Positions 35,896 to 50,351 of a stretch of 64,000 bases of DNA are shown piece by piece. The stretch is taken from positions 85,054-149,053 of the IMG/VR virus record IMGVR_UViG_3300027861_000001; one strand, 5' to 3'. Made by a program: the position numbers and the translations under genes. This DNA is from a virus. The notes beneath the pieces are model-generated. The model was not told where the DNA came from. It worked only from the letters and a program-made list of their open reading frames with translations, and did not search any database. Numbering within the stretch: position 1 is the first letter of the stretch; each line of letters opens with the position of its first letter.

Positions 35896-36357
35896 CTATA
35901 CAGTTTTATACCCTCTAGTTATTATCCTCGTATCTTTCTTAGCTTCGGTTACTTCTTTCCAGTCTTCTACTTTTGTAACTTTAACTGAATTGCTCCAATC
36001 AAATGTAACAGCATCTTCTGTCATTTGATAAGGTACTTTGAAGTAATCATTTCCTTTGCTTATAATTACGTGTGTTTCAAAAACATCAGATATCCACATA
36101 GATGAGGTTAATTCTGGTTGTGGACGATTACTATCAAGTGCATCGTATATCTTCCTCTCAATCTCTCTAAGACTGGTTTCACTTATAGCCTCGCTAGTAC
36201 CTTTCTTTGAAAGTTGTACTTTGCAAATTGCTACTTTCTCTCCTTTAGTATAAGGTTTACCAGTACGTTTACTTTTTCCGCTTATACCACTAACGCACTT
36301 CTCCATCCACGTATTGTTTTTAGGTGTATCTAAATTTTTAGGTAATCCATAAGGCAT
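35896..36357 (-). CDS. Hypothetical head-region protein
   Basis: GGAGGAG SD; MPY...WMEKCV...AICK N-terminus; precedes the protease. Confidence 0.65.
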   Translation of the reverse strand: MPYGLPKNLDTPKNNTWMEKCVSGISGKSKRTGKPYTKGEKVAICKVQLSKKGTSEAISETSLREIERKIYDALDSNRPQPELTSSMWISDVFETHVIISKGNDYFKVPYQMTEDAVTFDWSNSVKVTKVEDWKEVTEAKKDTRIITRGYKTV

Positions 36358-36358
36358 A

Positions 36359-37273
36359 TTATTCTCCTCCGACTAGCCTCCAAAAGGCAATTATTTTTTC
36401 CTCGTCGTCCCTTGTTTCTATATTAAGTGTTGGGTACAATACCACCTCGTTACCTAATGCTGCACTATTGTCATTAAACGGTAGTGTGTAAGCCTCTTGA
36501 CCAAAGTCACCACCCCACTTCGCCAAATAAAATTCTCTGTTTTTCCTAAAGTATCCATGATGTTTATTTGTGTCTATTTGCTGTTCATGTATTGTCCTGC
36601 TCCAGAAATGAAAATACCACGAATTGCCTGAAGTACATGATTTTATGTCTCCTGAGTTTACTGCTCTTCGACAATAATCATTATCCGAGTAGTATGCGGG
36701 ATAAAAGTTAACATCAATATACCCCAACTTCTCCATTACAGACTTCTTATACAGTGTAAAATTGTGAACATCACCCATCGGTACTGGTTGTATGTCTACT
36801 TCTTCAGAGTGTTGATCAAACTTTTCCCAACACCTGTGATCTAAAGAAAGCGGACTGAAGCTATGCTCTGCAAAATATTGGTTACACTCAGGATAAGTAA
36901 TACATAAATCTCTAACATCTACTTGCTTGGCACATACCCACTCATAACCAGCGTCAGAAATTTCTATCATAGAAGCTATAGCATAAGGATAAACAATAGT
37001 ATCGTTACCCATAACTATTAAATTTTCATAGTCGTTCTCTTTCCATGCAAAATCGTACATATCATTTATTGAGTATGGAAATCCCTTATTATACTCATGA
37101 ACTACGTAACTTAATCCGTTTTGTTCGGCATAATCTATAGTCTCAACATCTGTATTTTTTCCTATTACCAAGAAAACATCACACGCATCTGATGTTTCAA
37201 ATACTGACTCTACTGCTAGTTTAGTAAAAGGAAAGTTACCAAACGCAGCTATCCCTACCAGCGTATTACGCAT
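36359..37273 (-). CDS. GT-A (GT2-like) glycosyltransferase
   Basis: NKGFPYSIN, GND (DxD variant), GYIDVNFYPAYYSDNDY, HFWSRT, YLAKWG. Confidence 0.88.
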   Translation of the reverse strand: MRNTLVGIAAFGNFPFTKLAVESVFETSDACDVFLVIGKNTDVETIDYAEQNGLSYVVHEYNKGFPYSINDMYDFAWKENDYENLIVMGNDTIVYPYAIASMIEISDAGYEWVCAKQVDVRDLCITYPECNQYFAEHSFSPLSLDHRCWEKFDQHSEEVDIQPVPMGDVHNFTLYKKSVMEKLGYIDVNFYPAYYSDNDYCRRAVNSGDIKSCTSGNSWYFHFWSRTIHEQQIDTNKHHGYFRKNREFYLAKWGGDFGQEAYTLPFNDNSAALGNEVVLYPTLNIETRDDEEKIIAFWRLVGGE

Positions 37274-38135
37274 AAATCTTCTCCATCTGTTCTTTTATAT
37301 CAGAAAAAACTAGTTGTAACTCAGTATTAGGAGACCAAACTTTGTTAGCAGGAAGTGTATTTACATACACGAAATGAGAGGCTATCCTCTTGTATGTAAA
37401 AGACATTATTGTTTTTGTCTCATCCATCCAAGTATCATAGTTCTGGCAAAATACCTGCGGACCTGAGTTTCTCCCTATTATAAGCTTACAACTTTTTCCT
37501 AAATAAGCTATTTCATTTAAATCAAACATTCCTTTATTTATTATATCACTAGTTGTGAACAGGTTGTCCTTTTCAAAATCCACTCCCTGCGTAACCACAA
37601 AAGTTATGTCTTTGTACTCATCACACAGCAAAGAAACTACTGCGTTTAAGTCAAAGTTCTCAGCTTGACATGATTGTACTGGACCGTTCGATATAAGAAC
37701 AATTTTTTCCCTGTCTTTTACAAACTTGTCTATAGTATCTGTTTTATAGTATTCAAAGTTAATTTTTGGTATGTAGTCATGCGGTTGATTAGGAAGAGTA
37801 CCCAACCCCAAAACACTCAACATATCACTATGCATCTCATATAATTTCTCTACAACACAACCTATTCCTGGTAAAACATATCTACCATCCCTACCTATCC
37901 AAGTATTTATGTAAATCGTGTCTTTGTCTATAACAAACATAGCCATAGAGTGCATAATCTCTGTCACTTCGATTGATGTTATATTTGGTATATCTTTAAT
38001 TATTTCTTTGTCTTTGCCGTGAGCATAGTAGAAAGAAGACGTTGGGAAGCACTTCATCCAGTACTTAACGAACTCTCTTGATTCATAAATATCTCCAGCC
38101 CCAAAATGATTATAAAAAACAACTTTATTCATCAC
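37266..38135 (-). CDS. GT-B glycosyltransferase, GT9/heptosyltransferase-like
   Basis: N-terminal GAGD and C-terminal IIGRNSGP, resembling the GT9 GD and GNDSGP motifs. Confidence 0.55.
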   Translation of the reverse strand: MMNKVVFYNHFGAGDIYESREFVKYWMKCFPTSSFYYAHGKDKEIIKDIPNITSIEVTEIMHSMAMFVIDKDTIYINTWIGRDGRYVLPGIGCVVEKLYEMHSDMLSVLGLGTLPNQPHDYIPKINFEYYKTDTIDKFVKDREKIVLISNGPVQSCQAENFDLNAVVSLLCDEYKDITFVVTQGVDFEKDNLFTTSDIINKGMFDLNEIAYLGKSCKLIIGRNSGPQVFCQNYDTWMDETKTIMSFTYKRIASHFVYVNTLPANKVWSPNTELQLVFSDIKEQMEKIYA

Positions 38136-38403
38136 TATATGTTTTGGATGTAGGACTTATAGTTTCTTCACCCAACCTTTTATCTATTGCTCTAATTAGA
38201 GCATTTCTTTTTGCGTTTAGTTCTTGAGCTTGCTTCGCTGCTACACATAATTCCTTATCACTAGCAGGGTTCATCACCACTTCCTGCGCCAGAAAGCACT
38301 TGATATCAACTGTACAAAGCTCGTCTAGGAGCATGCCGATGCTCTTAACTTCAATTTCGATTTTATCTTCCATTATTTTGCACCTGTTCATTAATCCAAG
38401 CAT
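38125..38403 (-). CDS. Small helical protein of the kind found in glycosyltransferase clusters (DUF4254-like; probable start 38373)
   Basis: SIGMLLDEL...IK...LNAKRNALIRAID pattern. Confidence 0.5.
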   Translation of the reverse strand: MLGLMNRCKIMEDKIEIEVKSIGMLLDELCTVDIKCFLAQEVVMNPASDKELCVAAKQAQELNAKRNALIRAIDKRLGEETISPTSKTYSDE

Positions 38404-39334
38404 ATGTTTTATTCATACCATCAACTAGTAGAGCAGTTGGTCTCCACCCTAACTTCTCTTCTATTAAAGCATTATCTGAGTTACGTCCTAATACACCTAA
38501 CGGACCTAGAATGTTTTTAATTACCAAAGTCTTACCTGATATATCAATAACCATCTTAGCTAAGTTGTTAATAGAAATCATCTCATCAGACCCAATGTTA
38601 ACTGGCCCAGTGAAGTCAGAATCCATCAACCTACGAACAGCTTCAAGGCACTCATCAATATAAAGGAATGACCTTGTTTGTGTCCCATCACCCCAAACCT
38701 CAATAGTCCCTCCATCATTAGTTTGAGCTACTTTTCTACACATAGCTGCTGGAGCTTTTTCCCTTCCACCGTCCCAAGTACCTAAGATTCCAAATATATT
38801 ATGAAACCTAGCAATTGCTACATTTAATCCGTAGTTCCTGTTATAAGCCAAATAAACCCTCTCACTGAACAACTTTTCCAACCCGTAGTCACTGTCTGGG
38901 TCAGCTGGATAAGCAGAGTCTTCCTTACAGTTAGGATTATCTGGGTCTAGTTGATTATATTGTGGATATACACAAGCCGAAGATGAAAAGAATACTTTTC
39001 CTACTTTAAACTCAGCACACAGCTTTGCTACGTTTAAATTTATCGTTGCTGAGTTATGTACGATGTCTGCATCGTTCTCACCGGTGAACACAAACCCAGC
39101 ACCACCCATATCGGCTGCTAGTTGGTATACTTCGTCATATTCACCACATTCAAATGCTTTATAACAAGCATTAAGGTGCCTTAAATCCCCTATAAAAAAT
39201 ACATCGGCTTTAGTGTGTTCATATTCTGGATATTTTATATCAACACCGACAACAAAGTAATCTCTCTCCTTTAAATAGTTAACTAAGTGATGTCCTATGA
39301 AACCACCAGCTCCGCAAACTAATGCCTTTCTCAT
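38363..39334 (-). CDS. GDP-mannose 3,5-epimerase-like extended SDR
   Basis: GAGGFIG, LAADMGGAGF, SSSACVYP, YGLEK, RFHNIFG, GGREKAPAAMCRK, GRNSDN. Confidence 0.9.
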   Translation of the reverse strand: MRKALVCGAGGFIGHHLVNYLKERDYFVVGVDIKYPEYEHTKADVFFIGDLRHLNACYKAFECGEYDEVYQLAADMGGAGFVFTGENDADIVHNSATINLNVAKLCAEFKVGKVFFSSSACVYPQYNQLDPDNPNCKEDSAYPADPDSDYGLEKLFSERVYLAYNRNYGLNVAIARFHNIFGILGTWDGGREKAPAAMCRKVAQTNDGGTIEVWGDGTQTRSFLYIDECLEAVRRLMDSDFTGPVNIGSDEMISINNLAKMVIDISGKTLVIKNILGPLGVLGRNSDNALIEEKLGWRPTALLVDGMNKTYAWINEQVQNNGR

Positions 39335-39343
39335 ATTTCCTCC

Positions 39344-40654
39344 TTACATTCCGTATAACAAATCTTTAGCAATATCCCAACGATATTCTTGTAGTTTATC
39401 CATCTGCTCGTCGGGGATGGGAATCTCTAACAGTATCTTAACTAACTCTATAGGAAGTTGATGTTTAACGGCAAAAAACCACCACTTATGCAACCTATCT
39501 ATCTTTTCAGGGTCTGGAATCTTTAATTGCGTACCAGAGTAAAAAGTTTTAGCTTGAGTATCCTCCTCTATTATCCCAGTGTCTAAGCAATACTTCCACA
39601 AATCTGTTTTAGGAAACGGTTGAAATATTGCTGACCAAGAGTCAGTAGGATTTATTTTTATATTATATTCCAACGTTTCTAAAGCGTCGGCTAGCGGGTC
39701 ATCAACTGGAAGACCTATCATATTTTGTAATCTAACCTTTATCCCTAATTCATCACAATATCTACAGGCTGCTTCTACTTGTTCATTAGTAATGTTGCCT
39801 CTCCGCAAAAACTTTTGTGTAGTTGGGTTGGCTGATTCAAGTGCAATATTTAAAAAATCGCATCCTGTAATTGCCATATAGTTCAAAATATTGAAATCAA
39901 CGCTGCTGGCTCTGATAGAACCGCAGTATGGAATATTTACCTCTTTTGCGTATATGTCACCGAACTCAAACAACCAATCCTTGCTGGCTGCCAAGTCGTC
40001 ATCATTAAAGTATGTTAACTCTAACCCATATGTGTCTTTCACTTGTTTTATCTCATCAACCATTTTTCTAGGTGTTAGATGCTGCTTAAATTTATCTTTC
40101 TCATCTTTATACAAGCTTTTGAACAAATGATTAAAACAGTACTTACAGCTGTGTAGACAATATCTAGTAGCAATAAACCGTTTCATTCTTGCTTTGCCGA
40201 ACTCGTCATACTTATACAACAGTGAACGATCTGGTGCTGGAAAGCTATTAACGTCCGGTAGTGAACCTACAACTTGCCTAGGTAACTTACCACCAACTAA
40301 ATCAAGAATGATGTTTTCACCTGGACCTTGAACCACATAATCAACATAAGGATTATCTAATCCTTGCTCAGGGAAAAATGTAAAATGCGGACCTCCCATA
40401 ACTGACTTGAACCTGTGTTCCTTTTTTAGTTCCATGTTCTTTTCTAGAAACCACTCATGATCACCAGTCATAACAGAGTACATTATGAAATCAGTTGGAA
40501 AGTAACTGTCTATAGACTCTACACCAACTTGGCAAAAATCAACTTTATGCCCAGCTTCTTTTAATATGCTTGCTAAGTATAAAAAACCAATCTTATCAGT
40601 CCTTAGTTTGTCTTCAACAAATAATACTCTCATTAAAACACTCTTTGATAACAC
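39344..40654 (-). CDS. Cobalamin-binding radical SAM enzyme, putative class B methyltransferase (probable start 40633)
   Basis: B12-binding N-terminus (YLASILKEAGH, GGPH, GPGE); CLHSCKYC; NDDD; ALESAN; MIGLP. Confidence 0.88.
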   Translation of the reverse strand: MLSKSVLMRVLFVEDKLRTDKIGFLYLASILKEAGHKVDFCQVGVESIDSYFPTDFIMYSVMTGDHEWFLEKNMELKKEHRFKSVMGGPHFTFFPEQGLDNPYVDYVVQGPGENIILDLVGGKLPRQVVGSLPDVNSFPAPDRSLLYKYDEFGKARMKRFIATRYCLHSCKYCFNHLFKSLYKDEKDKFKQHLTPRKMVDEIKQVKDTYGLELTYFNDDDLAASKDWLFEFGDIYAKEVNIPYCGSIRASSVDFNILNYMAITGCDFLNIALESANPTTQKFLRRGNITNEQVEAACRYCDELGIKVRLQNMIGLPVDDPLADALETLEYNIKINPTDSWSAIFQPFPKTDLWKYCLDTGIIEEDTQAKTFYSGTQLKIPDPEKIDRLHKWWFFAVKHQLPIELVKILLEIPIPDEQMDKLQEYRWDIAKDLLYGM

Positions 40655-41547
40655 TCAAACGCTTTCAACGCTTCTGGTGTTAAGTACTGCCTAAAGTTAT
40701 CTATGTCTTCCAACATTGATTTGGTGTGCTTGTATCCAAAGATTTCTCTTTCAAGATTTACTATTAACGACTGCTCGTTTCTGTCTTGATAAACACTTGG
40801 TTTACAAAAAACAGGTCTAACACCACATAAATGTTGAACAACGTAACCACCCCATATATCATCCATTCTTCCTACGTGTGGTAGCACCATATAGCTAGGA
40901 ATAAGTTGCCTAGACAAAAAAGTATTCTGGCTATCGAATGGAGTAATTTGCTCTGAAGTGTACGGTTCCGTACTATCAAACTTTACTAATGGACTATATA
41001 TGAGCCTATATGTAGCATCAATGTCAGGATCACCGTCCCACAGGTCTGCCTGTATTTGTACCTTTGTGGTCTTTTTTCCTAGATATTTTGGATTCCTATC
41101 TTTTATATACTGTATTGGATAACCTCTATGCCACAGCTCAGGATACTTTGTAACACTTAATGGATCAAATACTCCAATATTGTCTTCGTAGTGATCAACC
41201 TCCAGCGTTTTTCCTATTAGTAAGTTTTCACCCCATCCATCATATGGCATATTGTCATCATCTATGGTAGCTACAACCTCTGCACCACGTTTATAAGCTT
41301 CTACAAATCCTATATTTCTACGCATAATGCAGTTCCAACCAATAGCATCACTCAACTCAGGGTATTGTTCTTTCTGATAATCAGGATGCAAGTAAATCCA
41401 AGAGCCGTTCTCGTATGCTTCGTGAGGTGTTTTCAAATCACCTACGATTATCATTTGCCAATTTAACATTTTTGAAAACTTCAATGTAGCTTCTGTAGGA
41501 GGTTGTATTGTAGTTGTTACTATAAATTTACGCACCTGTCTCCTCAT
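40633..41547 (-). CDS. STELLO/DUF288-like, GT75 (RGP/mutase)-related GT-A protein
   Basis: VTTTIQPPT, VGDLKTP, RRNIGF, IDDDN, WHRGYP, DPDIDA, SQNT, RMDDIW. Confidence 0.78.
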   Translation of the reverse strand: MRRQVRKFIVTTTIQPPTEATLKFSKMLNWQMIIVGDLKTPHEAYENGSWIYLHPDYQKEQYPELSDAIGWNCIMRRNIGFVEAYKRGAEVVATIDDDNMPYDGWGENLLIGKTLEVDHYEDNIGVFDPLSVTKYPELWHRGYPIQYIKDRNPKYLGKKTTKVQIQADLWDGDPDIDATYRLIYSPLVKFDSTEPYTSEQITPFDSQNTFLSRQLIPSYMVLPHVGRMDDIWGGYVVQHLCGVRPVFCKPSVYQDRNEQSLIVNLEREIFGYKHTKSMLEDIDNFRQYLTPEALKAFECYQRVF

Positions 41548-42142
41548 GTTTATAAATTACAAGATTGATTTCGGTATCAAAGTAAACGGTATTGTTCTCA
41601 GCAAAAGAATTAATAAAGGTATTTACATCTGGACAATAACTATTAGCATAATCATCCCAAATTACATAACCTCCAACACGAACCATTTTAATAGCATTCA
41701 TACTGTCGCTTTGTATAACATCTAAAGTATGCCCACCGTCAACAAACACAATATCCATCTTATTATAAAACCGTTCAAAATTCAAACACATAGAGTTATC
41801 TTGTATAATCTCTATCTTGTTTAGTGTTCTTTTTGGTATACCAACTAACAATTCCCTTCTTAACTCATCAGACATGTACAAATCTTCAAACTCAGAATGA
41901 CTACCTACAGCGTCACTTGGCAAATCTAACGTATATATTTTTGCATCGTCTGGTAAGTTGACAGCAATATTAAGTGTAGTTCTTCCTCTAAAAGTACCAA
42001 ACTCAAAAATATTTTCTGCTTGTGTCTGTTTAATAATACTTAAAAGCGCCGATAAAGCACCGTCTGGTAGGTCACCAAATACCCACCCCCCTAACAAGGA
42101 CTTTGTGAATAGCTCTCTGTAATCTACAAACTCCACTGCCAC
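41528..42142 (-). CDS. Class I SAM-dependent methyltransferase (Methyltransf_24-like; probable sugar O-methyltransferase)
   Basis: FEFGTFRG, VFVDGGH, GGYVIWDDY. Confidence 0.88.
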   Translation of the reverse strand: MAVEFVDYRELFTKSLLGGWVFGDLPDGALSALLSIIKQTQAENIFEFGTFRGRTTLNIAVNLPDDAKIYTLDLPSDAVGSHSEFEDLYMSDELRRELLVGIPKRTLNKIEIIQDNSMCLNFERFYNKMDIVFVDGGHTLDVIQSDSMNAIKMVRVGGYVIWDDYANSYCPDVNTFINSFAENNTVYFDTEINLVIYKHEETGA

Positions 42143-43035
42143 TACAATACCTCCATAATTAGTCTGTCATCGTCCGAAAATCCCCAAGTATCAGTGTTAG
42201 TGCTGGTAGTGAAGTGTTGCATAGCAAACTGAACTGAGTTCCAACCACCTTGTCCTCCCCCTCCACCATCACAAGTATTATCATGCCCTATATGAAACAC
42301 TGGTATATCCCACCTGCCTTCTATGTTGTAACCATTTAGAAGTGCCTTCTTCTGTACATTACCGTCGGCGTATCCTCTTCCAATTAGGGACTCTTCAAAT
42401 CCTTTAATACTGTACCAAATGTCTCTGTGAGCAATTTGAAAATCTCCGTTACCGTTTACTAAAGTCCAAATGTCTCCCTCACAAACTGCTGTAGGCCCTT
42501 GCTGTCCCCTCCCAGGTTCGCTAAATGGGTACATGTTGTTTTCAAATAACCTTGTTAGCGTTCCTTGTACATCATAACCAACGTCACCAACGTCTCTGAT
42601 GTGTTGTAGCGAAAGCATATTCTTGGCGGCAGGAGAGAAAGTATCTTTGCTTGAAAAGCGTTCTAAATAACCCCTCCTAGGAACAAGAACATCTATATTT
42701 GTAGAAACGATAAAATCGGTACTTAACCTTCTGATACCGATGTTTCTTCCTAAAACTTCAGTGACTACTTGTGGTTCTATTTTCTGTGGGTTTAGGTTAT
42801 TCCTAATGTATTCATGTGCTTTGTCCTTACTAACAACCACATATTTTAATTTAGATTTATTAAGTAAATTATGCTTTACGTCGTCAATAAGTGGGTAAGT
42901 TTCAGATGCCCAATCTACATACACAACCTCATCAAATGATGTTAACATTGAGTTTAAAGCATATGAGGCTCTTTCTACTAAGTTACCACCATAATCATCA
43001 TTTCTAGCTACTACTATTGCTCCATAAGTATCCAT
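42142..43035 (-). CDS. GT-A glycosyltransferase
   Basis: RNDDYGG, VDWAS, RNIGIRR, STNID, GDFQ, GFEE...GYAD. Confidence 0.8.
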   Translation of the reverse strand: MDTYGAIVVARNDDYGGNLVERASYALNSMLTSFDEVVYVDWASETYPLIDDVKHNLLNKSKLKYVVVSKDKAHEYIRNNLNPQKIEPQVVTEVLGRNIGIRRLSTDFIVSTNIDVLVPRRGYLERFSSKDTFSPAAKNMLSLQHIRDVGDVGYDVQGTLTRLFENNMYPFSEPGRGQQGPTAVCEGDIWTLVNGNGDFQIAHRDIWYSIKGFEESLIGRGYADGNVQKKALLNGYNIEGRWDIPVFHIGHDNTCDGGGGGQGGWNSVQFAMQHFTTSTNTDTWGFSDDDRLIMEVL

Positions 43036-43700
43036 TAATTTTTCCTAAATACAAGAGTGGCAAACGCATATAAATGACCTTGGTAAATAAAGTCTGGTTC
43101 ACCGCTATAATCAGGTTCATCTACTACAGCACAACCACACCTATCTAGCACACCAAAAAGTCTAACCATATCTCCATCAGTGTATAACCTTACAACAGTT
43201 TGTGGTAGTGGTGTACCAATTCTATAGTCATTGTTAAAGTCAAGCGTTAGTACACCATGACCACCTGGATTTAAAAGATGGCAAACGTTCTCTATAAACT
43301 CTTCATCATTCCTCTCATGCTCAATAACAGACGTAGCAAATATTATGTCAAACTTTTCTTCTGTTATCTTACGAAAGTCAGTTAATGAATAATTAATGTC
43401 TTGATCAATATCAACTACGTCTATACCCATACCTTGAATAGAACCAGAAACCGAATCCTCAAAAGCGCCAACACACAAAAGCTTATCATTGTCTTTGTAA
43501 ATTCTTACTACTTCACTCAACGTAAAAGCTTGTTGTACGTTTGCAAGCGTTATTTTTCTGCTCATTATATCTGGACACAACACAAACATTTCGTCTATAA
43601 CAGACTGATAAAATACCCTATCAACGTCTAATAAAAGCCTATTAATTTGCATAACACATGTCCTCAAATGCTTTAATAAAGTTATCAGTAGACCACTCAT
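43035..43700 (-). CDS. Class I SAM-dependent methyltransferase (probable start MQINRLL near 43652)
   Basis: LCVGAFED, FDIIFATSVIEH, LNPGG. Confidence 0.82.
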   Translation of the reverse strand: MSGLLITLLKHLRTCVMQINRLLLDVDRVFYQSVIDEMFVLCPDIMSRKITLANVQQAFTLSEVVRIYKDNDKLLCVGAFEDSVSGSIQGMGIDVVDIDQDINYSLTDFRKITEEKFDIIFATSVIEHERNDEEFIENVCHLLNPGGHGVLTLDFNNDYRIGTPLPQTVVRLYTDGDMVRLFGVLDRCGCAVVDEPDYSGEPDFIYQGHLYAFATLVFRKN

Positions 43701-44595
43701 TGTGATATTTCTCCAGCGGTTTAATACCTTTATTTATGATGTCAGAAATTGTATTCGTGTCTGATACGACTATATCCTCATTTATTATATGCCTAAACAT
43801 CGTACAAGCTGATATAGCTAATGGTTTTTTAACTGATAAAGCATAATCTATTACGCTGGAAATCCCTGGATGAATAGCTCCGTATAAAAATACATTAATA
43901 TCATTCTTAGCAAGGAACTTAAGTACATCTTCATCTGATATAAAATCTGTTGTAATATTAAGAGTTATGTTACTATTAACATTCTCTCTTTCGCAATCAC
44001 TCTTTACTAGTTCCTGCGTAGTCCCCTCAGCATCACCAAAAGCTGCTACTGTCATGTGTAAATTTATAATAGCCTCATCAAATGTTTCATTTACAAGCGC
44101 AACTAACTCACTAAATCCTTTATGACCAAAACCAAAACCAAAACTACCTATTGTTGGTACTTTATTAATTGTTTCTTCGCAACTACAATCAAACAAAGGA
44201 CGTGGTAATAGTATTCTTTTGTCTTGCGGAATGTCTAATACTATTTCTGGGATATCAACCGTAGTATCAACAACATCTGCCGCACCTGAAAAAATGTACT
44301 TGTCTAAACATCGTTTTATATTACCACCATCATGGAATATACCATACTGTTTACAGTAGGGTCTTAACCCAATAATTATGCTGTCGTCTAACCACCCCAT
44401 CGTACACGTATAAAAATTATATATAATTATGTCAGGATTAACGTCACCAAGGGCAGTTTCAAACTCTTGTGGAGTAGTAATCTCACAGCAGTAACACTTA
44501 ACATTTTTAGCTTTAGAAGCAAGTTGATAAACTCTCTTACCAAACTGATAAACTCCGCAACTTTGCTCTTTGTGATTTACAAACAAAACCTTCAT
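43642..44595 (-). CDS. GT-B-like glycosyltransferase
   Basis: CGVYQFG N-terminus; IGSFGFG..HKG; GISSVIDYALSVKKP. Confidence 0.65.
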   Translation of the reverse strand: MKVLFVNHKEQSCGVYQFGKRVYQLASKAKNVKCYCCEITTPQEFETALGDVNPDIIIYNFYTCTMGWLDDSIIIGLRPYCKQYGIFHDGGNIKRCLDKYIFSGAADVVDTTVDIPEIVLDIPQDKRILLPRPLFDCSCEETINKVPTIGSFGFGFGHKGFSELVALVNETFDEAIINLHMTVAAFGDAEGTTQELVKSDCERENVNSNITLNITTDFISDEDVLKFLAKNDINVFLYGAIHPGISSVIDYALSVKKPLAISACTMFRHIINEDIVVSDTNTISDIINKGIKPLEKYHNEWSTDNFIKAFEDMCYAN

Positions 44596-45788
44596 AAATA
44601 ATATACTCCGTCTTTAGTAAATACACAAGGTTCTGGCATTGGTGATATAAAAGAACCACCGCTTTCCAAATAAGGTGAGTGCTTGACAGCTATTGTAGCA
44701 GAAAAGTGCCAAGGTAATATTAAAAAATACTCTGGATGTTGTTTAAGAAGTTCAACCTCAGAAACTATCGGAATATTTGTTCCTACAGTACGCAATCCAA
44801 ACTTGTCCTCGTTAACTTCGGCAGCTGCTTTTATCTTCGTATTATCTAATCCAAAGTATTGAAGTAATGTATTACCTTTTGTAGAGGCTCCGAAAACAAA
44901 GATATCTTTATCGTCTATAAACCCCGTAACTTTTTTCTTTATTATTTCTACTCTATTAGCGAATGCTTCGAATGGGTTTTCAAATAATGCCATGTACTCA
45001 ACTTCTTCTTGTAAAGCACGCTCCACGTTGTCGTTTACTGTGTACATCCCAGCATAAGACACAAAAGCTCTTATACTACCGCCGTTAACTTCGTTGAAAG
45101 AAACATCGAATATTTGTAGTCCCTTCTGTCTCATCATACCACACAAGACACTCAACGAGTAATATTCCAAGTGTTCATGACATATATTATCAAAAGCATT
45201 TATCTTTAGCATTGACACTAGGTCAGTGAACTGAATAACCCACACACCGTCATCTGCCATAATGGTTTTAATGTCGTCTATAAACTCCATAGGGTCTTCT
45301 AAATCATAAAACATAGCTATGCTTGTAACAACTTTAGCTTTTTCAATAGGGTATGTAGAACTGAAGTAGTCATTTATAAAAACATCACAAAGCTTTTCGG
45401 CTTCTTCTTTTAGGTTATACGCAGGATCAAACCCTATTTTAACTATCCCTTCATCAAAAAAACTAAGCATTGTTCCATCGTTACAACCGATGTCAACAAC
45501 AACATCACCTTTGTTAAGTGTTACTTTACTGTTTACGTCGTGAACCACGTCTTCCAAAGCCTCTATCATAGACTTATTAAGGGCTGATTTATACCAGTAC
45601 TGTCTGTACATCATATCTAGGGGAACAGCCTCTTTAAGCTGTACCAAACCACACTCACAAACACACAGACACAGCGGATACTTCTCACCGTGGTAAGTAT
45701 CAGAAACGAAATTAGATGGATATAAGTCCCCCAAATCTAAAACAGTCTCTAAGCTACCACCACAAATTCTACATGTGTTATGTTCCAT
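44592..45788 (-). CDS. NDP-hexose C-methyltransferase (TcaB9/TylCIII family)
   Basis: Zn site CRICG...C, VDIGCNDG, ICHEHLEYYS, NGGSIR, GASTKGNTLL, LPWHF. Confidence 0.92.
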   Translation of the reverse strand: MEHNTCRICGGSLETVLDLGDLYPSNFVSDTYHGEKYPLCLCVCECGLVQLKEAVPLDMMYRQYWYKSALNKSMIEALEDVVHDVNSKVTLNKGDVVVDIGCNDGTMLSFFDEGIVKIGFDPAYNLKEEAEKLCDVFINDYFSSTYPIEKAKVVTSIAMFYDLEDPMEFIDDIKTIMADDGVWVIQFTDLVSMLKINAFDNICHEHLEYYSLSVLCGMMRQKGLQIFDVSFNEVNGGSIRAFVSYAGMYTVNDNVERALQEEVEYMALFENPFEAFANRVEIIKKKVTGFIDDKDIFVFGASTKGNTLLQYFGLDNTKIKAAAEVNEDKFGLRTVGTNIPIVSEVELLKQHPEYFLILPWHFSATIAVKHSPYLESGGSFISPMPEPCVFTKDGVYYL

Positions 45789-45796
45789 TACCTCTC

Positions 45797-46849
45797 CTAC
45801 AACTTTGGTGTACCTTTCTCATGATTTGTTTTGTCGATATCATACTCTACCATTCGTCTTACTAGCTCTCCAAAAGTAACCGTCGGTTTCCACCCCAACT
45901 CTCTAGTAATTTTTGACGCGTCACCTTGAAGAAGTTCCACTTCTGTAGGTCTATAAAAAGCATCACTAATTTCAACCAACAACTTACCGTCTTGATTATA
46001 CGCTTTCGTAGAGCTACCTTCACCTTCCCAACTAAGAGTTGTGCCTACTACAGCAAAGGCTACGTCTACAAACTCTCTAACTGAGTGTGTCTCTCCTGTT
46101 GCTACTACATAGTCTGATGGGCTATCAGCAGTAAGCATCATATGCATCGCTTTCACGTAGTCTTCGGCGTGCCCCCAATCTCTATAAGCGTCTGGATTAC
46201 CTATGACTAGCTTGTCTTGTACTCCGTTATATATAGAGGCTACTGCTCTAGAAATCTTTCTAGTTACAAATTCTGCCCCTCTTAACTCACTCTCGTGATT
46301 GAAAAGAAGACCGTTACAAGCAAACATACTGTACGCTTCCCTGTAGTTAACGGTTACCCAATAAGCTGCTAGTTTAGCTATACCATAAGGGCTCCTAGGA
46401 TAAAACGGAGTTTTTTCAGTTTGAGGTGTCTCCTGAACCTTACCAAACATTTCACTTGTCGAGGCTTGATAAAATGCAGTAGTGTCACCAAACCCTAATT
46501 TTTTAACAGCTTCCAAAATGCGCACAACACCTAGCGTATTAACTTCAAAAGTGTGCTGCGGTGTTTCAAACGACGGTGCCACAAAAGACTGTGCAGCTAG
46601 GTTGTATATCTCGTCCGGTTTGTATTTTTCTATAACTTTGTGCACATTAGTAAACTCAAGCAAATCCATATGAACCATGTTTATGTCGTTTTGGATACCT
46701 AAAGCTGATAACCTCCAAGGTTCTGCGCTACCTGTTCTCCTGTTAGTTCCTATAACCTCATACCCTTTACCAAGCAGATGCTTGGATAAGTACGCAGCAT
46801 CTTGCCCAAAAATACCAGTAATCATTGCAGTTTTACGCATTTTTACCAT
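45797..46849 (-). CDS. gmd: GDP-mannose 4,6-dehydratase
   Basis: TGIFGQD, YNLAAQSFV, YQASTSEMFG, PRSPYGIAK, FNHES, RDWGHA, YRPTEV. Confidence 0.96.
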   Translation of the reverse strand: MVKMRKTAMITGIFGQDAAYLSKHLLGKGYEVIGTNRRTGSAEPWRLSALGIQNDINMVHMDLLEFTNVHKVIEKYKPDEIYNLAAQSFVAPSFETPQHTFEVNTLGVVRILEAVKKLGFGDTTAFYQASTSEMFGKVQETPQTEKTPFYPRSPYGIAKLAAYWVTVNYREAYSMFACNGLLFNHESELRGAEFVTRKISRAVASIYNGVQDKLVIGNPDAYRDWGHAEDYVKAMHMMLTADSPSDYVVATGETHSVREFVDVAFAVVGTTLSWEGEGSSTKAYNQDGKLLVEISDAFYRPTEVELLQGDASKITRELGWKPTVTFGELVRRMVEYDIDKTNHEKGTPKL

Positions 46850-47768
46850 ACCACTCTATAGTTTTTTTGAGTCCTTCATCAAAAGATGTTTTTGCTTTAA
46901 ATGAAAACTCTAACTCTGCTCTTGCCGTATCTAAGCATCTTCTAGGTTGTCCATCAGGTTTTGAAGTATCCCATATAATTTCTCCGTCGTAACCAATTAT
47001 ATCAGCAATCTTACCTACTAGGTCTCTGATTGAAATCTCAAACCCAGCACCTAAATTTACTGGCTCTGGTTTGTTGTAATGTAATAAAGCCTTGACAACA
47101 CCTTCACCAGCATCTTCTACGTACAAGAACTCTCTTGTTGCTGTACCTGTACCCCAAACAACTACTTCCTTATCGTTATTTACTTTAGCGTTATAAAATC
47201 TCTTTATTAGGGCTGGTACAACATGAGACCTTTCATCTGAAAACTCATCACCTGGACCATATAGATTAACAGGCAATAAAAATACACCGTTTAAACCGTG
47301 TTGTTGCCTACAAGCCTGTAACTGTACTAGCAACATCTTTTTCGCCAACCCGTACGGTGCATTAGTTTCTTCTGGATATCCGTTCCATAGTTCTTCCTCT
47401 TTAAAAGGAACTGGTGTAAATTTAGGATAAGCACAAATAGTACCAACCACTAATAACTTCTCTACCCCAGCAATTCTAGCCGCTTCAACTATGTTCACGC
47501 CCATAGTCATGTTGTCATAGAATAAGCTATAAGGGTATGCTTGATTATAGCCAATCCCGCCAACGTTCGCAGCTAAGTGAATACACAGGTCAGCTTTTGA
47601 CAACAACCGTGCACAAGCCTCTTCTTGCCTTAAGTCAAACTCATTAGACCTTGGAATAATTATCTTTGATTCCTCAGCACCGTTGTTTATTAGCTCGTTT
47701 ATTACATTCTTACCTAGGAAACCAGCACCACCAGTCACTAATATAACCTTACCTTTTAATGTTTCCAT
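46833..47768 (-). CDS. fcl: GDP-L-fucose synthase (GDP-4-keto-6-deoxymannose epimerase/reductase)
   Basis: GGAGFLG, LAANVGGIG, GTICAYPK, NAPYGLAKK, NLYGPGD, SHVVPAL, REFLYVED, KPDGQPRR. Confidence 0.94.
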   Translation of the reverse strand: METLKGKVILVTGGAGFLGKNVINELINNGAEESKIIIPRSNEFDLRQEEACARLLSKADLCIHLAANVGGIGYNQAYPYSLFYDNMTMGVNIVEAARIAGVEKLLVVGTICAYPKFTPVPFKEEELWNGYPEETNAPYGLAKKMLLVQLQACRQQHGLNGVFLLPVNLYGPGDEFSDERSHVVPALIKRFYNAKVNNDKEVVVWGTGTATREFLYVEDAGEGVVKALLHYNKPEPVNLGAGFEISIRDLVGKIADIIGYDGEIIWDTSKPDGQPRRCLDTARAELEFSFKAKTSFDEGLKKTIEWYGKNA

Positions 47769-47769
47769 A

Positions 47770-48492
47770 TTACTCCTTTATACGCATAGCATCGCAAAAC
47801 CCATACTTTCGTCTTAATAATACCTCATTTGGTACTCTGCCGTTTGAAAGTGCTAGCATAGTTTTCTTTCTACTACACTCATCAACCTTATCAGAAATTG
47901 GAATTTTAGATAATAAACACGTTATCCTATCATCTATGTATGGTAAGTACACCTTAACATTACCAGAATTATTGTTTAATGGTTGTAGTTGTTCGCGTTG
48001 CAGTCTTCGTATGTAATCATAGTAAGTAATCTCTGACGGGTCTTTTTGGTGGTCATAATAACCACACACAAACTCATCAACACCGTCGCACGCTATTATG
48101 TTATGAGTATATCTACTAACAAAGTTATATAGCATTCTAACAGCGTTGTCTCCAGCAAAGTCGTCTAGTTTTATATTCTCTGTTGCATACTCTAGTGTTG
48201 GGATATAACAATACAAATTAACTCTAAGTTCATCAGTATTTAATCTATCTGCCACCAATTTAGCATGAACTATATCTGGATGATCTTTCGAACTACCAAT
48301 AGTAAAAGCATTAACAATGTCATACTTTTGTAACATAAAGTACAACATTAGCGTTGAATCAATACCACCAGAAAACGCAAGATAATTACAATCAATATCT
48401 TCTAAAACGTCAACAATCGCACTCTCAACGCTCTCTATAGTTATTTCTTGACCAACCTCGTCCCAATAGTTTGGGTATATTATCATTACCAC
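47770..48492 (-). CDS. Asparagine-synthase-like ATP pyrophosphatase (synthetase domain only)
   Basis: PP-loop FSGGIDS; CDGVDEFVCGY (GxGxDExFxGY); PYID; RRKYGF. No Ntn glutaminase domain. Confidence 0.82.
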   Translation of the reverse strand: MVMIIYPNYWDEVGQEITIESVESAIVDVLEDIDCNYLAFSGGIDSTLMLYFMLQKYDIVNAFTIGSSKDHPDIVHAKLVADRLNTDELRVNLYCYIPTLEYATENIKLDDFAGDNAVRMLYNFVSRYTHNIIACDGVDEFVCGYYDHQKDPSEITYYDYIRRLQREQLQPLNNNSGNVKVYLPYIDDRITCLLSKIPISDKVDECSRKKTMLALSNGRVPNEVLLRRKYGFCDAMRIKE

Positions 48493-50351
48493 TCCTTGGC
48501 TTTTTGTTTCGCTGTCATACCAGAATGCATTCTCTTAGGAACTATCCCTGCTTCGTGCGCTTCCTCATCAGACCAAGTTGTTTCTTGTGTTTCTTCTAAC
48601 CCAAGTATCACATGGAACCTTCCAGCATCAAGTTCCTTACCGTCAAGATATGCTTTTCCTTTATGGATAACTAAGTGTCCTTGTGTAAATAAATTAGCTA
48701 TGTGATCATACAACATACAATGATGCAAATGTTCCTTACCGTCTTCGTCTACCTCAACATGGTGTATAAGATATTCAAAATCTTGTAAAGGAGTGTACTC
48801 CTCTGCCAACTCAGTTAAAGGTATACTTAGTTCGCTGGTTTTTTCTTTTGGTTTAGGTGTAGGCTCTGTGCTTGGATGTTTTCCTATCTCAGGAGATGAA
48901 TAAGGTAGAAGTGGAGCAGGTTCAAGACCATACTCTTTAAACTTTTCTTCCTCTCTCTTCTTTCTTTGAAGTTCAGTTTCAAAATCTAGTCCTAACATTT
49001 CTAGTCTAGTCGTTCTAGACAATGAACCTTCTTTATAAACAGACTCCCCAATAGTATTCAAATCAATCAGCTTATAAAGCTTCATTGGCTCAAACTCAGG
49101 GACTGGAAAATTCTTAAATCCGTTCTTTTCGGCTATTTCCTTATACAAATCTATAGTCCAAAGAATTAACTTATCTCTTATAGCTTCCATAGTAGCTATT
49201 GGAGAGAATGTAGCACTGTCTGAACCACCTTCAACATTAGACCTCTTTGTTTCCCCTGTAATAAGTGTACGTGGAAAACCTAAACCAGCAATTATATCGT
49301 CATCAACTGACTGATATTTTTCTTGGTTCAACATAGCTTCAGTGTTAGGAAATATCCACTCAATCGTTAAAGTATGGTTTCCAAACAATTGATAAATTCT
49401 TTCGTTTTCACCTTTAGTAGTTCTATAGTTCATCTGGTCTTTTATGTGTTGAAAGTCCCCTTCATCCGTACACGGAAAATCTTTGTCACCTAATTTAATC
49501 ATCTGTATGGCTGCTGTAACTCTAGACGATATAGAATAGTCCATCTTACGTAGATTTCTCTTGTGCATCAAAGACTCTAATGCATTACTCATATATGGAA
49601 TAGGATATGTCTCATCACTTAAACATCTACTTAATAATGGTCTAACGTTCGGTAAGAGAATATTGATCTTTGATCCTCTTCCAGCATCCTTTACAGCTTT
49701 AACAAATTCAGGATAAGACTGAATCATTTGTTTATATGTTTCTTTGTCCCACGTACCATCAGCAAGCTTTCCACCGGTTTTTATGAACTGAATTAACTCG
49801 GCAGACACCTCAACGTAAAAGTATTTCTTATTAGTTACAGGGTTGTCTTTTATAATAACTGTTTTAGGGTCTCTAAACCAAAGGTTATCTGGTACAGTTA
49901 ATCTTCTTCTGGAACCTAACTCGCTACTAAGCTCTGAACCTTTCTTCTTAACCCACTCATACTGTGGAAGAACGATACCTGATAACAAGTATTCAAGACA
50001 TGCGTTTCTGAAAAACTCCTGTAATAACCCAGCCAAGCTGTCATAAGTATAAAACTCTTCATCACTAGCTTTAATTTGATTATTTTTTATGGGTGAGATA
50101 GCGCAGTCTACCATTTTATTAAGTACTGTCCCAGCTACTGGGTCATGCTTATAAAAAAATCGGCACATCTTTATCATCTTCTTAGGATCAGACGGTAGTT
50201 CCATTCTATCTACTTTCATAGTAGAATAAACGCTCCCACTGTCATTAGACATGTTTAGAACGTTAAAAGACGCTTTTGCTAACTTATATTCTTTAGGTTC
50301 TGTGTTTTCACTTGCTATATTTTTCTCTTCCAATGTAGTACCTCGCAACAA
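48486..50351 (-). CDS. Portal protein with C-terminal His-rich extension
   Basis: Directly after TerL; CRFFYKHDPVA, II.GLGFP..LI.G motifs; size. Confidence 0.85.
   Translation of the reverse strand: MLRGTTLEEKNIASENTEPKEYKLAKASFNVLNMSNDSGSVYSTMKVDRMELPSDPKKMIKMCRFFYKHDPVAGTVLNKMVDCAISPIKNNQIKASDEEFYTYDSLAGLLQEFFRNACLEYLLSGIVLPQYEWVKKKGSELSSELGSRRRLTVPDNLWFRDPKTVIIKDNPVTNKKYFYVEVSAELIQFIKTGGKLADGTWDKETYKQMIQSYPEFVKAVKDAGRGSKINILLPNVRPLLSRCLSDETYPIPYMSNALESLMHKRNLRKMDYSISSRVTAAIQMIKLGDKDFPCTDEGDFQHIKDQMNYRTTKGENERIYQLFGNHTLTIEWIFPNTEAMLNQEKYQSVDDDIIAGLGFPRTLITGETKRSNVEGGSDSATFSPIATMEAIRDKLILWTIDLYKEIAEKNGFKNFPVPEFEPMKLYKLIDLNTIGESVYKEGSLSRTTRLEMLGLDFETELQRKKREEEKFKEYGLEPAPLLPYSSPEIGKHPSTEPTPKPKEKTSELSIPLTELAEEYTPLQDFEYLIHHVEVDEDGKEHLHHCMLYDHIANLFTQGHLVIHKGKAYLDGKELDAGRFHVILGLEETQETTWSDEEAHEAGIVPKRMHSGMTAKQKAKEW

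Follow-up and report, generated by a model that had tools for sequence, protein, structure and literature searches.

Giant eukaryotic viruses glycosylate their capsids or fibrils: the chlorovirus PBCV-1 uses Gmd/GMER and cytosolic transferases, and the Megavirinae have clade-specific sugar clusters. These viruses supply themselves with GDP-sugar donors, that of fucose among them, and with methylated rare sugars, and assemble the glycans in the cytoplasm without a host membrane pathway. Mycobacteriophages carry glycans on capsid and tail-tube subunits (Freeman et al. 2023, via PMC12619734). T4-like cyanophages have sugar islands such as ORF121–135 of S-SCSM1, which have been read as cell-wall/lipopolysaccharide genes (PMC9602691). 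The phage DNA-glycosylation clusters of Pyle et al. (2023) are defined by an adjacent enzyme making 5hmC or 5hmU (TET-like dioxygenase or ThyS).

Here we describe a sugar-gene island in an uncultured marine phage whose 149,053-bp IMG/VR record has direct terminal repeats and is estimated to be 100% complete. The window, meaning the whole stretch of DNA analysed, is the final 64 kb of this record. Like the giant viruses, the phage family has, as read from its genes alone, its own donors and clade-dependent gene sets; the window phage differs in being tailed and having a capsid of the HK97 fold, in its transferases, and in a predicted L-hexofuranose module and C-methyl branch. The mycobacteriophages Che8, Corndog and Myrna resemble it in having soluble phage-encoded transferases and methyltransferases and no membrane machinery, as described in citing papers (PMC12619734, PMC13313380). 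By those accounts, the mycobacteriophages have few transferases, use host donors and infect actinobacteria, whereas the marine window phage has 14 genes, about nine of them donor-making or tailoring, plus a family-core GT4 glycosyltransferase. Unlike those phages as described there, it has its sugar genes between portal and protease, and no C-terminal acceptor segment was seen in it. The T4-like cyanophages S-SCSM1 and S-T4 (gp104–119, NC_048049) share Gmd, Fcl, GME, transferases and methyltransferases with the island, but keep their sugar genes in variable regions outside the structural modules, next to hli and other auxiliary genes. Those of the window split the terminase–portal–protease operon, and its GT4 is core to the structural module.

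The island within the packaging and head operon

The island consists of 14 intact, abutting ORFs, all on the minus strand, at 36359–48492 (12,134 bp, 8.1% of the genome). On this strand the order is g182, TerL, portal, the 14 island ORFs, h153, protease, scaffold, decoration and capsid. From the gene coordinates, the intergenic gaps from g182 through h153 are all 9 nt or less, and 10 of the 14 island junctions overlap. The GC content of 0.345–0.397 is the same as in the flanks, without a compositional break. The central observation of the earlier note, 14 packed genes between portal and protease and in line with terminase, is confirmed by these coordinates. Its proposal that the genes are expressed late is not supported as stated: position is the sole basis, and a promoter/terminator scan gave results at chance level.

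The flanking genes described here are likewise on the minus strand. The small protein g182 (51929–52477), directly upstream of TerL, is a candidate small terminase; in relatives the gap from its homologue to TerL ranges from 0 to 9.6 kb, and the sugar island of distant relatives fills this gap. TerL (50361–51932) matched PHROG phrog_2 (E 3e-21), with weak Pfam Terminase_6 matches, and the 621-aa portal protein (48486–50351) gave a PHROG portal match (E 4e-8); portal homologues (33–66% identity) stand before the protease in relatives. Beyond the last island gene, h153 (35896–36357) is kept just upstream of the protease, at 31–46% identity, in close relatives only. The putative prohead protease (35174–35803) was assigned from its position, from alignment A4, where His87 and Ser137 are invariant, and from a weak match to Mu-like_Pro in one member of its family. 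In relatives the protease and scaffold are fused, with coiled-coil C-terminal halves; the window's protease matches the N-terminal part of such a fusion. The window's scaffold protein (34540–35187) has matches of coiled-coil type only; in close relatives its homologues sit between the protease and decoration genes. For the capsid decoration/cement protein (33944–34504; AF2 model, pLDDT 78.7), match ranks 1–13 were all tailed-virus capsid decoration/cement proteins, those of phi29 (gp8.5 base), T1, FCWL1, Sf11, HFTV1 and TW1. The major capsid protein (32972–33904) is HK97-fold (NCBIfam capsid_Caudo_2, E 3.5e-16). A GT4 glycosyltransferase (29393–30655; Pfam Glycos_transf_1; PHROG 2170, E 3e-46) lies between head-completion and tail genes, outside the island as the earlier note had delimited it.

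A scan of the translations found no hydrophobic 19-residue segment above threshold in any of the 14 island proteins, and no ORF genome-wide with more than three such segments. The genome therefore encodes no flippase, polymerase (Wzy) or polyprenyl-phosphate transferase, in agreement with what had been claimed. It does not follow that the acceptor must be cytoplasmic, as had been concluded from the missing transmembrane segments. Transferases working on lipid-linked intermediates can likewise be soluble or peripheral, and lipid-linked envelope glycans are the usual targets of soluble GT4-, GT9- and GT2-type enzymes; the missing segments therefore fit either reading.

Predicted functions of the island genes

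Most of the earlier gene calls held in profile and structure searches. The 240-aa g1 (47770–48492) consists of an ATP-dependent synthetase (PP-loop) domain of the AsnB type and lacks the glutaminase domain (Pfam Asn_synthase, E 2e-15, residues 40–168; NCBIfam); it is presumed to be an amidating or amide-forming tailoring enzyme; a 44% identical homologue directly follows the portal gene in the close relative L121. The GDP-L-fucose synthase-like SDR (Fcl/GMER) g2 (46833–47768) matches NCBIfam GDPFucSynFcl over its full length (E 4e-82), with a score of 276 bits that is below the equivalog cut-off of 500. The GDP-mannose 4,6-dehydratase (Gmd) g3 (45797–46849) scores above the TIGR01472 equivalog cut-off (447.6 against 415 bits). 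The NDP-4-keto-sugar 3-C-methyltransferase g4 (44592–45788; Pfam Methyltransf_13/23/14) has full-length matches to MycC3 (PDB 4rv9, E 7e-48) and TcaB9 (E 1e-35).

Next in order is g5 (43642–44595), a GT-B fold, GT4-like glycosyltransferase whose structure matches GT1/GT4 clusters of the Atlas (TM 0.79–0.84); its nearest clusters are 97–100% viral. Its homologues are usually paired in relatives with those of g6 (43035–43700), a class I SAM methyltransferase (Pfam Methyltransf_11/12/23). The AF2 model (pLDDT 77) of the GT-A fold glycosyltransferase g7 (42142–43035) gave Foldseek matches that include K4CP, TarP, the WrtF fucosyltransferase and ppGalNAc-T (best E 3e-8), and g8 (41528–42142) is a SAM methyltransferase of the Methyltransf_24/O-methyltransferase type (Pfam E 7.6e-10 and 3.7e-7). 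The B12-binding radical SAM tailoring enzyme g10 (39344–40654; Pfam B12-binding and Radical_SAM), with homologues at 62–67% identity in relatives and a weak match to AprD4 (E 9e-7), may carry out either methylation or deoxygenation. The GDP-mannose 3,5-epimerase (GME) g11 (38363–39334) matches PDB 2c59 over residues 4–320 (E 1.8e-93). The small helical DUF4254 protein g12 (38125–38403; PF14063) has 2560 homologues; 17 of 22 family members match PF14063 (best E 3.9e-10), and alignment A6 indicates a true length of ∼75 aa and a conserved C-terminal [ST]-x-T-x-K-[TS]-Y motif. The last two genes encode a GT9-like GT-B glycosyltransferase, g13 (37266–38135; Atlas structure, TM 0.72 to a GT9 cluster; nearest clusters viral), and a GT-A-like glycosyltransferase, g14 (36359–37273; PHROG ‘galactosyl transferase’, E 2e-11; alignment A3).

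The call that changed was g9 (40633–41547), previously described as ‘GT75/STELLO-like’. Its closest resemblance is not to a transferase but to MtdL (A201A) and Hyg20 (hygromycin A), bacterial GT75 mutases that interconvert the pyranose and furanose forms of GDP-L-galactose/GDP-L-fucose (PMC9937993), and profile A1 matched the MtdL structures PDB 7yua/7xpr at E 8e-30. The g9 protein is therefore probably an MtdL/Hyg20-like GDP-L-hexopyranose-to-furanose mutase. In a residue comparison (PMC9937993), g9 keeps the DDD(N) motif of MtdL, R141 as the equivalent of the catalytic autoglycosylated Arg159, and equivalents of S228/Q229, R257/D260, R289 and the guanine-selecting Thr13 and Ser86. In contrast, Asp87 is replaced by Ile, the Mn-binding His287 by Gln, His292 also by Gln and Asn42 by Lys, and the C-terminus is ∼70 residues shorter. 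As g9 lacks two residues needed in MtdL, Asp87 and His287, its mutase activity and substrate are predictions. Of 80 viral loci, 69 have homologues of g9 and GME side by side. S-T4 has a 57% identical g9 homologue, and on its contig (L027) a GME homologue is located upstream. Like MtdL and Hyg20, g9 is thus paired genomically with a GME, the product of which would be its substrate, and the pair is predicted to supply GDP-L-galacto- or fucofuranose donors. With g9 more like a mutase than a transferase, the island has four transferases, and the GT4 at 29393–30655 is a fifth.

Sugar genes in the structural operons of related phages

Relatives were sampled through the capsid gene, and hence without selection for sugar genes. 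At least 36 of the 39 covered loci have the GT4 between h160 and t150, with identities of 30–68% that are comparable to those of structural proteins; it belongs to the core of the structural module in this family. Homologues of island genes stand directly upstream of TerL in 19 of 26 covered distant relatives, and no recognisable island was present there in the other seven. In most distant relatives it is the g13–g14 pair that adjoins TerL, with g14 abutting it. The 34–53% identity of g13/g14 across distant relatives whose TerL is 31–39% identical points to long co-residence rather than recent pick-up.

In close relatives (TerL 69–73%) the genes that follow the portal encode another sugar pathway; that of L123 comprises SDRs, a GT2, a PfkB kinase, TPP enzymes, a radical SAM-SPASM enzyme, an acetyltransferase, RmlD and a C-methyltransferase. 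Sugar genes thus use three slots of one family's structural operon: between g182 and TerL, between portal and protease, and between head and tail genes in G001. DUF4254 recurs in the clusters, including small ones without the C-methyltransferase.

The cultured Synechococcus cyanosiphovirus S-CBS4 (NC_016766) also has sugar genes between portal and head protease. The portal gene is followed there by a small ORF, a GT4-type transferase, a ‘galactosyl transferase’ and a SAM methyltransferase, and then by the head maturation protease, a small protein and the capsid protein; gp014 is a homologue of the window GT4 (33% identity) and gp015 of g14 (31%). Unlike the window phage, S-CBS4 has three sugar genes only and no donor pathway, and between the two phages TerL, portal and capsid are not detectably similar. 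We found no mention of its sugar genes in the literature searched.

The relatives therefore keep sugar genes in the same operon, though slot and gene set vary. A recent, decaying copy of a host locus is ruled out by this pattern: the family-wide GT4, the homologues upstream of TerL, the differing pathways of close relatives and S-CBS4.

Candidate targets of glycosylation

That the island is an intact, phage-owned sugar-nucleotide, transferase and methyltransferase system within the packaging/head operon was borne out; the acceptor is a matter of weighing readings. Host-envelope remodelling, in which phage enzymes would make donors and add residues to the host's lipid-linked O-antigen, core or capsule intermediates while a host initiating transferase, flippase and ligase carried out the membrane steps, is rather unlikely in our judgement. 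The altered surface could block superinfection or prevent loss of progeny on debris. This is the standard view of Gmd/Fcl/GME/transferase clusters in cyanomyoviruses (S-SCSM1, PMC9602691), and GT9 and GT4 are typical lipopolysaccharide families, GT75 is widespread in bacteria (204 genome matches), gene content varies among relatives as in O-antigen loci, and lipid-linked acceptors are compatible with soluble transferases. However, early surface-changing genes would be oddly sited within a terminase–portal–protease operon, the initiating, flipping and ligating functions are not encoded in the genome, and four or five transferases would need to fit a foreign host pathway. Host glycans should also vary by host, yet the GT4 is near-universal in the virion module of a deep family.

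We give only a slight chance to a soluble or non-virion product, whether a small molecule or a protein (of phage or host) outside the particle that would carry the sugars. The best-characterised relatives of g4, g9 and g10 belong to the mycarose, A201A/hygromycin A and apramycin antibiotic sugar pathways, although characterised homologues come from such pathways largely through study bias, and the recurrent DUF4254 protein, whose C-terminal tail reads T-x-K-T-Y, is conceivable as carrier or target. The island showed no genes for making an aglycone (PKS, NRPS, nucleoside-forming enzymes), and the fixed place in the virion operon would be left unexplained. Glycosylation of phage DNA at hydroxymethyl-pyrimidines, prior to packaging or in the course of it, appears very unlikely. 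Phage GT-A and GT-B enzymes put mono- to trisaccharides on 5hmC, and some of these clusters, with transferases of viral origin as in the island, lie near terminase/structural genes (Pyle et al., bioRxiv 10.1101/2023.12.21.572611). One feature-based Atlas match of g5 to the T4 alpha-glucosyltransferase family is a lead only. The replication module has a short divergent thymidylate-synthase-family gene (4272–4910) that keeps the catalytic Cys and dUMP-specifying Asn but lacks ∼50 C-terminal residues; it is ∼32 kb from the island and absent, by protein search and Pfam search with positive control, from five sugar-gene-bearing relatives (four of them at least 90% complete). Unlike in the clusters of Pyle et al., no gene making 5hmC or 5hmU was found within or near the island or in relatives (the TET/JBP search has no bearing on this, as its control was silent), and no C5-cytosine methyltransferase was found in the genome. 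Known DNA glycans draw on common host sugars, not on some nine genes dedicated to tailoring GDP-sugars.

We favour, at roughly even probability, a phage-owned glycosylation system co-transcribed with the packaging and head genes, with virion proteins as its likeliest target. The whole family keeps sugar-transferase genes in the operon that builds the particle, and these phages therefore probably sugar-coat their own particles. Virion glycosylation is supported by the operon embedding with its short gaps and uniform composition, the near-universal GT4, the island homologues upstream of TerL in relatives, the three slots used within one family, the long co-residence of g13 and g14, the differing pathway of close relatives, the lack of membrane-step genes and the decoration protein gene adjoining the capsid gene. 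S-CBS4 would be an independent case, and mycobacteriophage capsid and tail-tube glycans offer a precedent. Against it, the head and tail proteins showed neither Ser/Thr-rich termini nor another acceptor signature. The virion-protein acceptor proposed in the earlier note is not supported as stated and stays inferred; its interpretation as a whole is partly supported. The T4-like cyanophage S-T4 has the GME–GT75 donor pair in a non-structural sugar island, the S-EIVl GT4 homologue adjoins a primase gene, and seven of the 26 covered distant relatives have no recognisable island upstream of TerL; these also count against virion glycosylation, as do the two MtdL residues that g9 lacks.

As homology shows, Gmd and the Fcl-like enzyme convert host GDP-mannose to GDP-L-fucose. 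The GT75 protein may turn pyranose donors into GDP-L-galactofuranose and/or GDP-L-fucofuranose, as in the A201A/hygromycin A pathways, and g4 may convert the Gmd product to a branched 6-deoxy sugar. Further tailoring of the sugars could come from the AsnB-like enzyme, the B12 radical SAM enzyme and the pair of SAM methyltransferases. A multi-residue methylated glycan would then be built in the cytoplasm by g5, g7, g13, g14 and the family-core GT4 on a conserved acceptor, for which the capsid protein and, from its model, the presumably surface-exposed decoration protein are prime candidates. The donor-making gene set varies among related phages, so the outer glycan would vary by lineage, in a serotype-like manner.

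Organization of the packaging and head operon

The IMG/VR record is complete (149,053 bp, with direct terminal repeats). Its final 64 kb form the window, in which every long gene lies on the minus strand. In the order of transcription, a class I ribonucleotide reductase gene is followed by the small gene g182, by the large terminase gene TerL (PHROG match, E 3e-21) and by the gene for a portal protein of 621 aa (48486–50351; PHROG match). Exactly 14 ORFs (g1 to g14, from 48492 down to 36359) then separate the portal from the gene h153, after which come a protease-like gene, a coiled-coil scaffold gene, the gene for a 186-aa protein modelled as a decoration or cement protein and, as the last of the head genes listed, the gene for an HK97-fold capsid protein (NCBIfam, E 3.5e-16). 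Gaps between genes measure 9 nt at most from g182 through to h153, where the junctions are mostly overlapping, and the GC content of the island (0.345–0.397) is that of its flanks. The gene layout, the short gaps and the uniform GC therefore confirm, as written, the observation in the earlier note of a 14-gene cluster between portal and protease. Promoter- and terminator-like sites were counted at or below the level expected from shuffled sequence, and so say nothing about operon structure.

The putative protease aligns with the N-terminal part of protease-scaffold fusions in related phages, and His87 and Ser137 are invariant in this alignment. One member of its family gave a weak match to a Mu-like protease; a search of the PDB with the family profile returned coiled-coil noise only. 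The portal is ∼100 residues longer than the portals of most relatives (486–531 aa), and a long form (619 aa) is also present in the close relative L121.

Within the replication module, a 212-aa protein of the thymidylate synthase family (4272–4910, minus strand) has retained the catalytic Cys and an Asn of the dUMP type and stops ∼50 residues short of canonical enzymes; a dUMP hydroxymethylase is one possibility, some other non-canonical enzyme a second. The primase gene (6932–8968, minus strand) contains an intein with a LAGLIDADG homing-endonuclease domain (Pfam Intein_splicing, LAGLIDADG_3 and DNAG_N). Among the relatives, TerL is 871 aa long in L003 and L006 and 904 aa in L120, compared with 514–539 aa elsewhere, and the ∼350–380 extra codons suggest an intein or other insertion. 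Another relative, L049 (complete, with terminal repeats), has a 174-aa ORF that splits the capsid gene into two homologous pieces (L049:16607–18196); this insert may represent an intron or homing element.

Predicted activities of the island enzymes

Several of the island enzymes have clear assignments. The g3 protein is a GDP-mannose 4,6-dehydratase (447.6 bits against an NCBIfam equivalog cut-off of 415), and the g11 protein, by its similarity to solved structures, is a GDP-mannose 3,5-epimerase (GME; Arabidopsis enzyme 2c59 matched over residues 4–320, E 1.8e-93). The assignment of g2 as Fcl-like is weaker, its full-length best match (E 4e-82) scoring 276 bits against an equivalog cut-off of 500. 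A sugar 3-C-methyltransferase is encoded at full length by g4 (MycC3, E 7e-48; TcaB9, E 1e-35), a B12-binding radical SAM enzyme by g10 and SAM methyltransferases by g6 and g8. For g1 the assignment is again weaker: it comprises the ATP-using synthetase half alone of an asparagine-synthase-type enzyme. Five ORFs (g5, g7, g9, g13 and g14) have no Pfam match. For g5, g7, g13 and g14 sequence searches gave no match to a solved structure, so folds were taken from a predicted model for g7 and from the Atlas for g5 and g13. The g7 model (pLDDT 77) has a GT-A transferase fold, with a Foldseek match to K4CP (E 3e-8) and further matches to TarP and WrtF. The Atlas models indicate a GT4-like GT-B fold for g5 and a GT9-like GT-B fold for g13 (TM 0.72–0.84), and g14 matches a phage ‘galactosyl transferase’ PHROG (E 2e-11).

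The remaining member of this group, g9, was compared with MtdL. A profile of 26 phage g9 homologues matches the MtdL crystal structures (E 8e-30). MtdL and Hyg20, the two characterised bacterial GT75 enzymes, interconvert the pyranose and furanose forms of GDP-L-galactose or GDP-L-fucose (PMC9937993). Like MtdL, g9 has the DDD(N) motif and the catalytic, autoglycosylated arginine (D96-D98/N99 and R141, invariant among the 26 homologues), and it retains equivalents of S228/Q229, R257/D260 and R289 as well as Thr13 and Ser86, the residues reported to select guanine. Unlike MtdL, it has Ile in place of the essential Asp87 (Ile74, nearly invariant in the phage homologues), Gln in place of the Mn-binding His287 (Gln254, invariant) and Gln in place of His292. 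Given these three replacements, g9 would belong to a divergent GT75 subfamily, for which we infer mutase activity. The strongest support for this predicted pyranose–furanose interconversion comes from genomic pairing: a GME homologue occurs in the same locus, typically adjacent, in 69 of the 80 viral loci retrieved with g9, the T4-like cyanophage S-T4 being among those with the pair. The earlier ‘GT75/STELLO-like’ description of g9 holds as to the GT75 family, and with g9 read as a mutase the island has four transferases rather than five. The g9 family is also found in 204 bacterial and archaeal genomes, at 43–60% identity.

The small helical protein g12 (38125–38403) belongs to the DUF4254 family, which 17 of its 22 homologues match (best E 3.9e-10), and the protein alignment A6 shows a conserved [ST]-x-T-x-K-[TS]-Y motif at the C-terminus. 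DUF4254 proteins (2560 homologues, ∼75–85 aa) recur in phage sugar clusters, and we know of no published function for them. An obligate partnership with the C-methyltransferase is not supported, as the two genes are adjacent in ∼14 of 22 cases and four clusters have DUF4254 without the C-methyltransferase.

Taken from the gene content, the island is predicted to produce GDP-L-fucose and GDP-L-galactose as sugar donors and probably their furanose forms, and would also be equipped to make a C-methyl-branched 6-deoxyhexose and to methylate further.

Position and exchange of the sugar genes among relatives

The window phage has no cultured relatives, the best capsid match in isolate collections being 25–27% identical. 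A capsid-protein profile search of IMG/VR found at least 254 relatives, of which the best 80 were kept and 78 analysed; 10 of these are ‘close’ (capsid 72–78% identical) and 68 ‘distant’ (∼45–53%). This sample was chosen without regard to sugar genes and its figures are thus the least biased. Within it, a GT4 gene at 29393–30655, which falls beyond the coordinates considered in the earlier note, is present between the head-completion gene h160 and the gene t150 in at least 36 of the 39 loci that cover the position, with 30–68% identity. This GT4 gene is a core gene of the family's structural module. A calcineurin-like metallophosphatase gene (30839–31540, minus strand) lies between h160 and GT4 in the window and, among the relatives, has this position only in the close ones.

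The location of the island itself varies. Of the 26 distant relatives whose upstream sequence is long enough, 19 have island-gene homologues directly upstream of TerL, in islands that typically start after the g182 homologue and end in a g13–g14 pair abutting TerL; the distance from g182 to TerL among relatives ranges from 0 to 9.6 kb. In a third arrangement (loci G001 and G002), a C-methyltransferase, DUF4254, a g14-like gene and GT4 are grouped between head and tail genes. Close relatives found through g14 (TerL 69–73%, portal 59–63%) have an island after the portal, as the window does, with content mostly different from that of the window.

One of these close relatives, L123, has in its island two further SDRs, a GT2, a PfkB kinase, two TPP-enzyme fragments, a radical SAM-SPASM enzyme, an acetyltransferase, an RmlD reductase and a distant C-methyltransferase, and the first island gene of L121 is a 44% homologue of g1. 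The contigs of all five close relatives found through g14 stop within the island, which would fit population-level hypervariability but is not proof of it; none of the five yielded a capsid gene. The distal end of the island is seen in the capsid-anchored close relatives, where h153 (31–46%) is followed by an extra GT4-like gene and the protease, and in one of these (L259) homologues of the C-methyltransferase, g13 and g14 lie just upstream of h153. The extra gene, between the h153 homologue and the protease in L252–L259, is 28–32% identical to the GT4 of the window phage, which lacks it.

The island genes of the window share 36–67% identity with those of the distant clade; in the close clade their counterparts are far less similar or absent. 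Sugar cassettes have therefore changed slots and passed from lineage to lineage inside this family. A recent copy from a host is ruled out by the genome-like composition, by homologues of 34–67% identity in relatives and by the nearest Atlas clusters of the transferases, which are 92–100% viral. A 23.7-kb contig labelled as a Bathyarchaeota MAG (JAUWDF010000001.1) has homologues of g182, the C-methyltransferase, DUF4254, g7 and g9 in the phage order, and looks like a contig of this phage family binned into an archaeal MAG.

A comparable gene order occurs in the cultured cyanosiphovirus S-CBS4: portal, a small ORF, a glycosyltransferase, a ‘galactosyl transferase’, a SAM methyltransferase, several small genes, the head maturation protease, a small protein and the capsid protein. 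Over 386 residues, the S-CBS4 protein gp014 shares 33% identity with the GT4 of the window (E 2e-52), and gp015 matches g14. No significant similarity links the TerL, portal and capsid proteins of the two phages. S-CBS4 is an independent case of transferases between portal and protease and, being cultured, allows the question of virion glycosylation to be tested directly. A GT4 homologue lies with sugar genes ∼2 kb upstream of the small terminase gene in the actinophage TJE1, and beside the primase gene in S-EIVl.

Candidate destinations of the glycan

We consider the chances to be about even that the island product decorates virion proteins. This reading best explains why a transferase is core to the structural module, why divergence of the anchor transferases has kept pace with that of the head proteins, and why, in two phage groups with unrelated structural proteins, cassettes recur in slots of the late operon that is conserved most. 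The soluble transferases (g5, g7, g13, g14 and GT4) and the methyltransferases (g6 and g8) are the kinds of gene associated with virion glycosylation in mycobacteriophages, for which there is precedent (Freeman et al. 2023, as summarised in PMC12619734). A candidate acceptor is the 186-aa protein, whose model (pLDDT 78.7, with a poorly modelled loop at residues 60–115) has as its leading matches, ranks 1–13, only capsid decoration or cement proteins of tailed viruses (phi29 gp8.5 base, T1, FCWL1, Sf11, HFTV1 and TW1). As summarised in PMC12619734, capsid or tail-tube subunits of mycobacteriophages end in a recognisable C-terminal acceptor segment; none of 13 head and tail proteins here has a Ser/Thr-rich terminus, and the real acceptor rules may differ.

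Remodelling of the host envelope by the island enzymes, the usual reading of cyanophage sugar islands (PMC9602691), seems to us unlikely. None of the 14 island proteins has a hydrophobic segment above threshold and no multi-pass membrane protein is encoded in the 149-kb genome, where each ORF has three hydrophobic segments at most. Remodelling is compatible with this absence of membrane genes, and the initiating polyprenyl-phosphate transferase, flippase or transporter, and polymerase or ligase of a Wzx/Wzy- or ABC-type locus, which were not found, may be supplied by the host. However, cyanophage ‘LPS/cell-wall’ islands are variable non-structural regions beside auxiliary metabolic genes (as in S-T4), whereas the island of the window is within the TerL–portal–protease–capsid operon. 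Glycosylation of DNA is known in other phages, sometimes with its genes near structural genes, and this genome does have an odd, C-terminally short gene of the thymidylate synthase family; but that gene, the only one of its family, is ∼32 kb from the island and absent from five sugar-bearing relatives, and the genome encodes no C5-cytosine methyltransferase. DNA sugar-hypermodification clusters have as a neighbour an enzyme that makes 5hmC or 5hmU (a ThyS-type hydroxymethylase, or a methyltransferase plus a TET-like dioxygenase), and beside the island there is neither a ThyS-type gene nor a C5 methyltransferase gene. A DNA acceptor seems highly improbable. There is also a slim prospect that the island yields a soluble product or acts on a protein outside the virion, perhaps with the DUF4254 protein involved.

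We tentatively propose that this uncultured family of marine tailed phages, to which the capsid-gene relatives in IMG/VR belong, may coat its capsid with a lineage-variable, O-antigen-like glycan. The core GT4 and the anchor transferases would build the glycan on a conserved virion protein. An exchangeable ‘viral serotype island’ in the packaging and head operon would supply its outer sugars, among them L-hexofuranoses and C-methyl-branched deoxyhexoses, which are known elsewhere from antibiotics of actinomycetes.

Sugar genes of marine phages are as a rule annotated as auxiliary genes for the host cell wall and, to our knowledge, a few mycobacteriophages are the only bacteriophages with demonstrated virion glycosylation. 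Neither the glycosylation of mycobacteriophage virions nor the presence of sugar-nucleotide clusters in marine phages is new in itself; the novelty lies in the pathway's size and chemistry, its insertion at the portal–protease junction, the family-wide core GT4, the slot-and-cassette behaviour and the recognition of a widespread GME–GT75 furanose module, as predicted from the genes. This pair occurs in more than 200 viral contigs and in the 204 prokaryotic genomes, and predicts, whatever the acceptor of the glycan, that L-galactofuranose or L-fucofuranose donors are far commoner in nature than would appear from the two antibiotic pathways known to contain them. In the family of the window phage, a transferase is core to the structural module and large exchangeable sugar-making cassettes occupy slots of the terminase–portal–protease operon. 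If the glycan is on the particle, marine virions would have variable coats, with possible effects on adsorption, decay, aggregation and grazing; their recognition by lectins or antibodies could also be affected, and sugar genes in many phages would have to be annotated anew.
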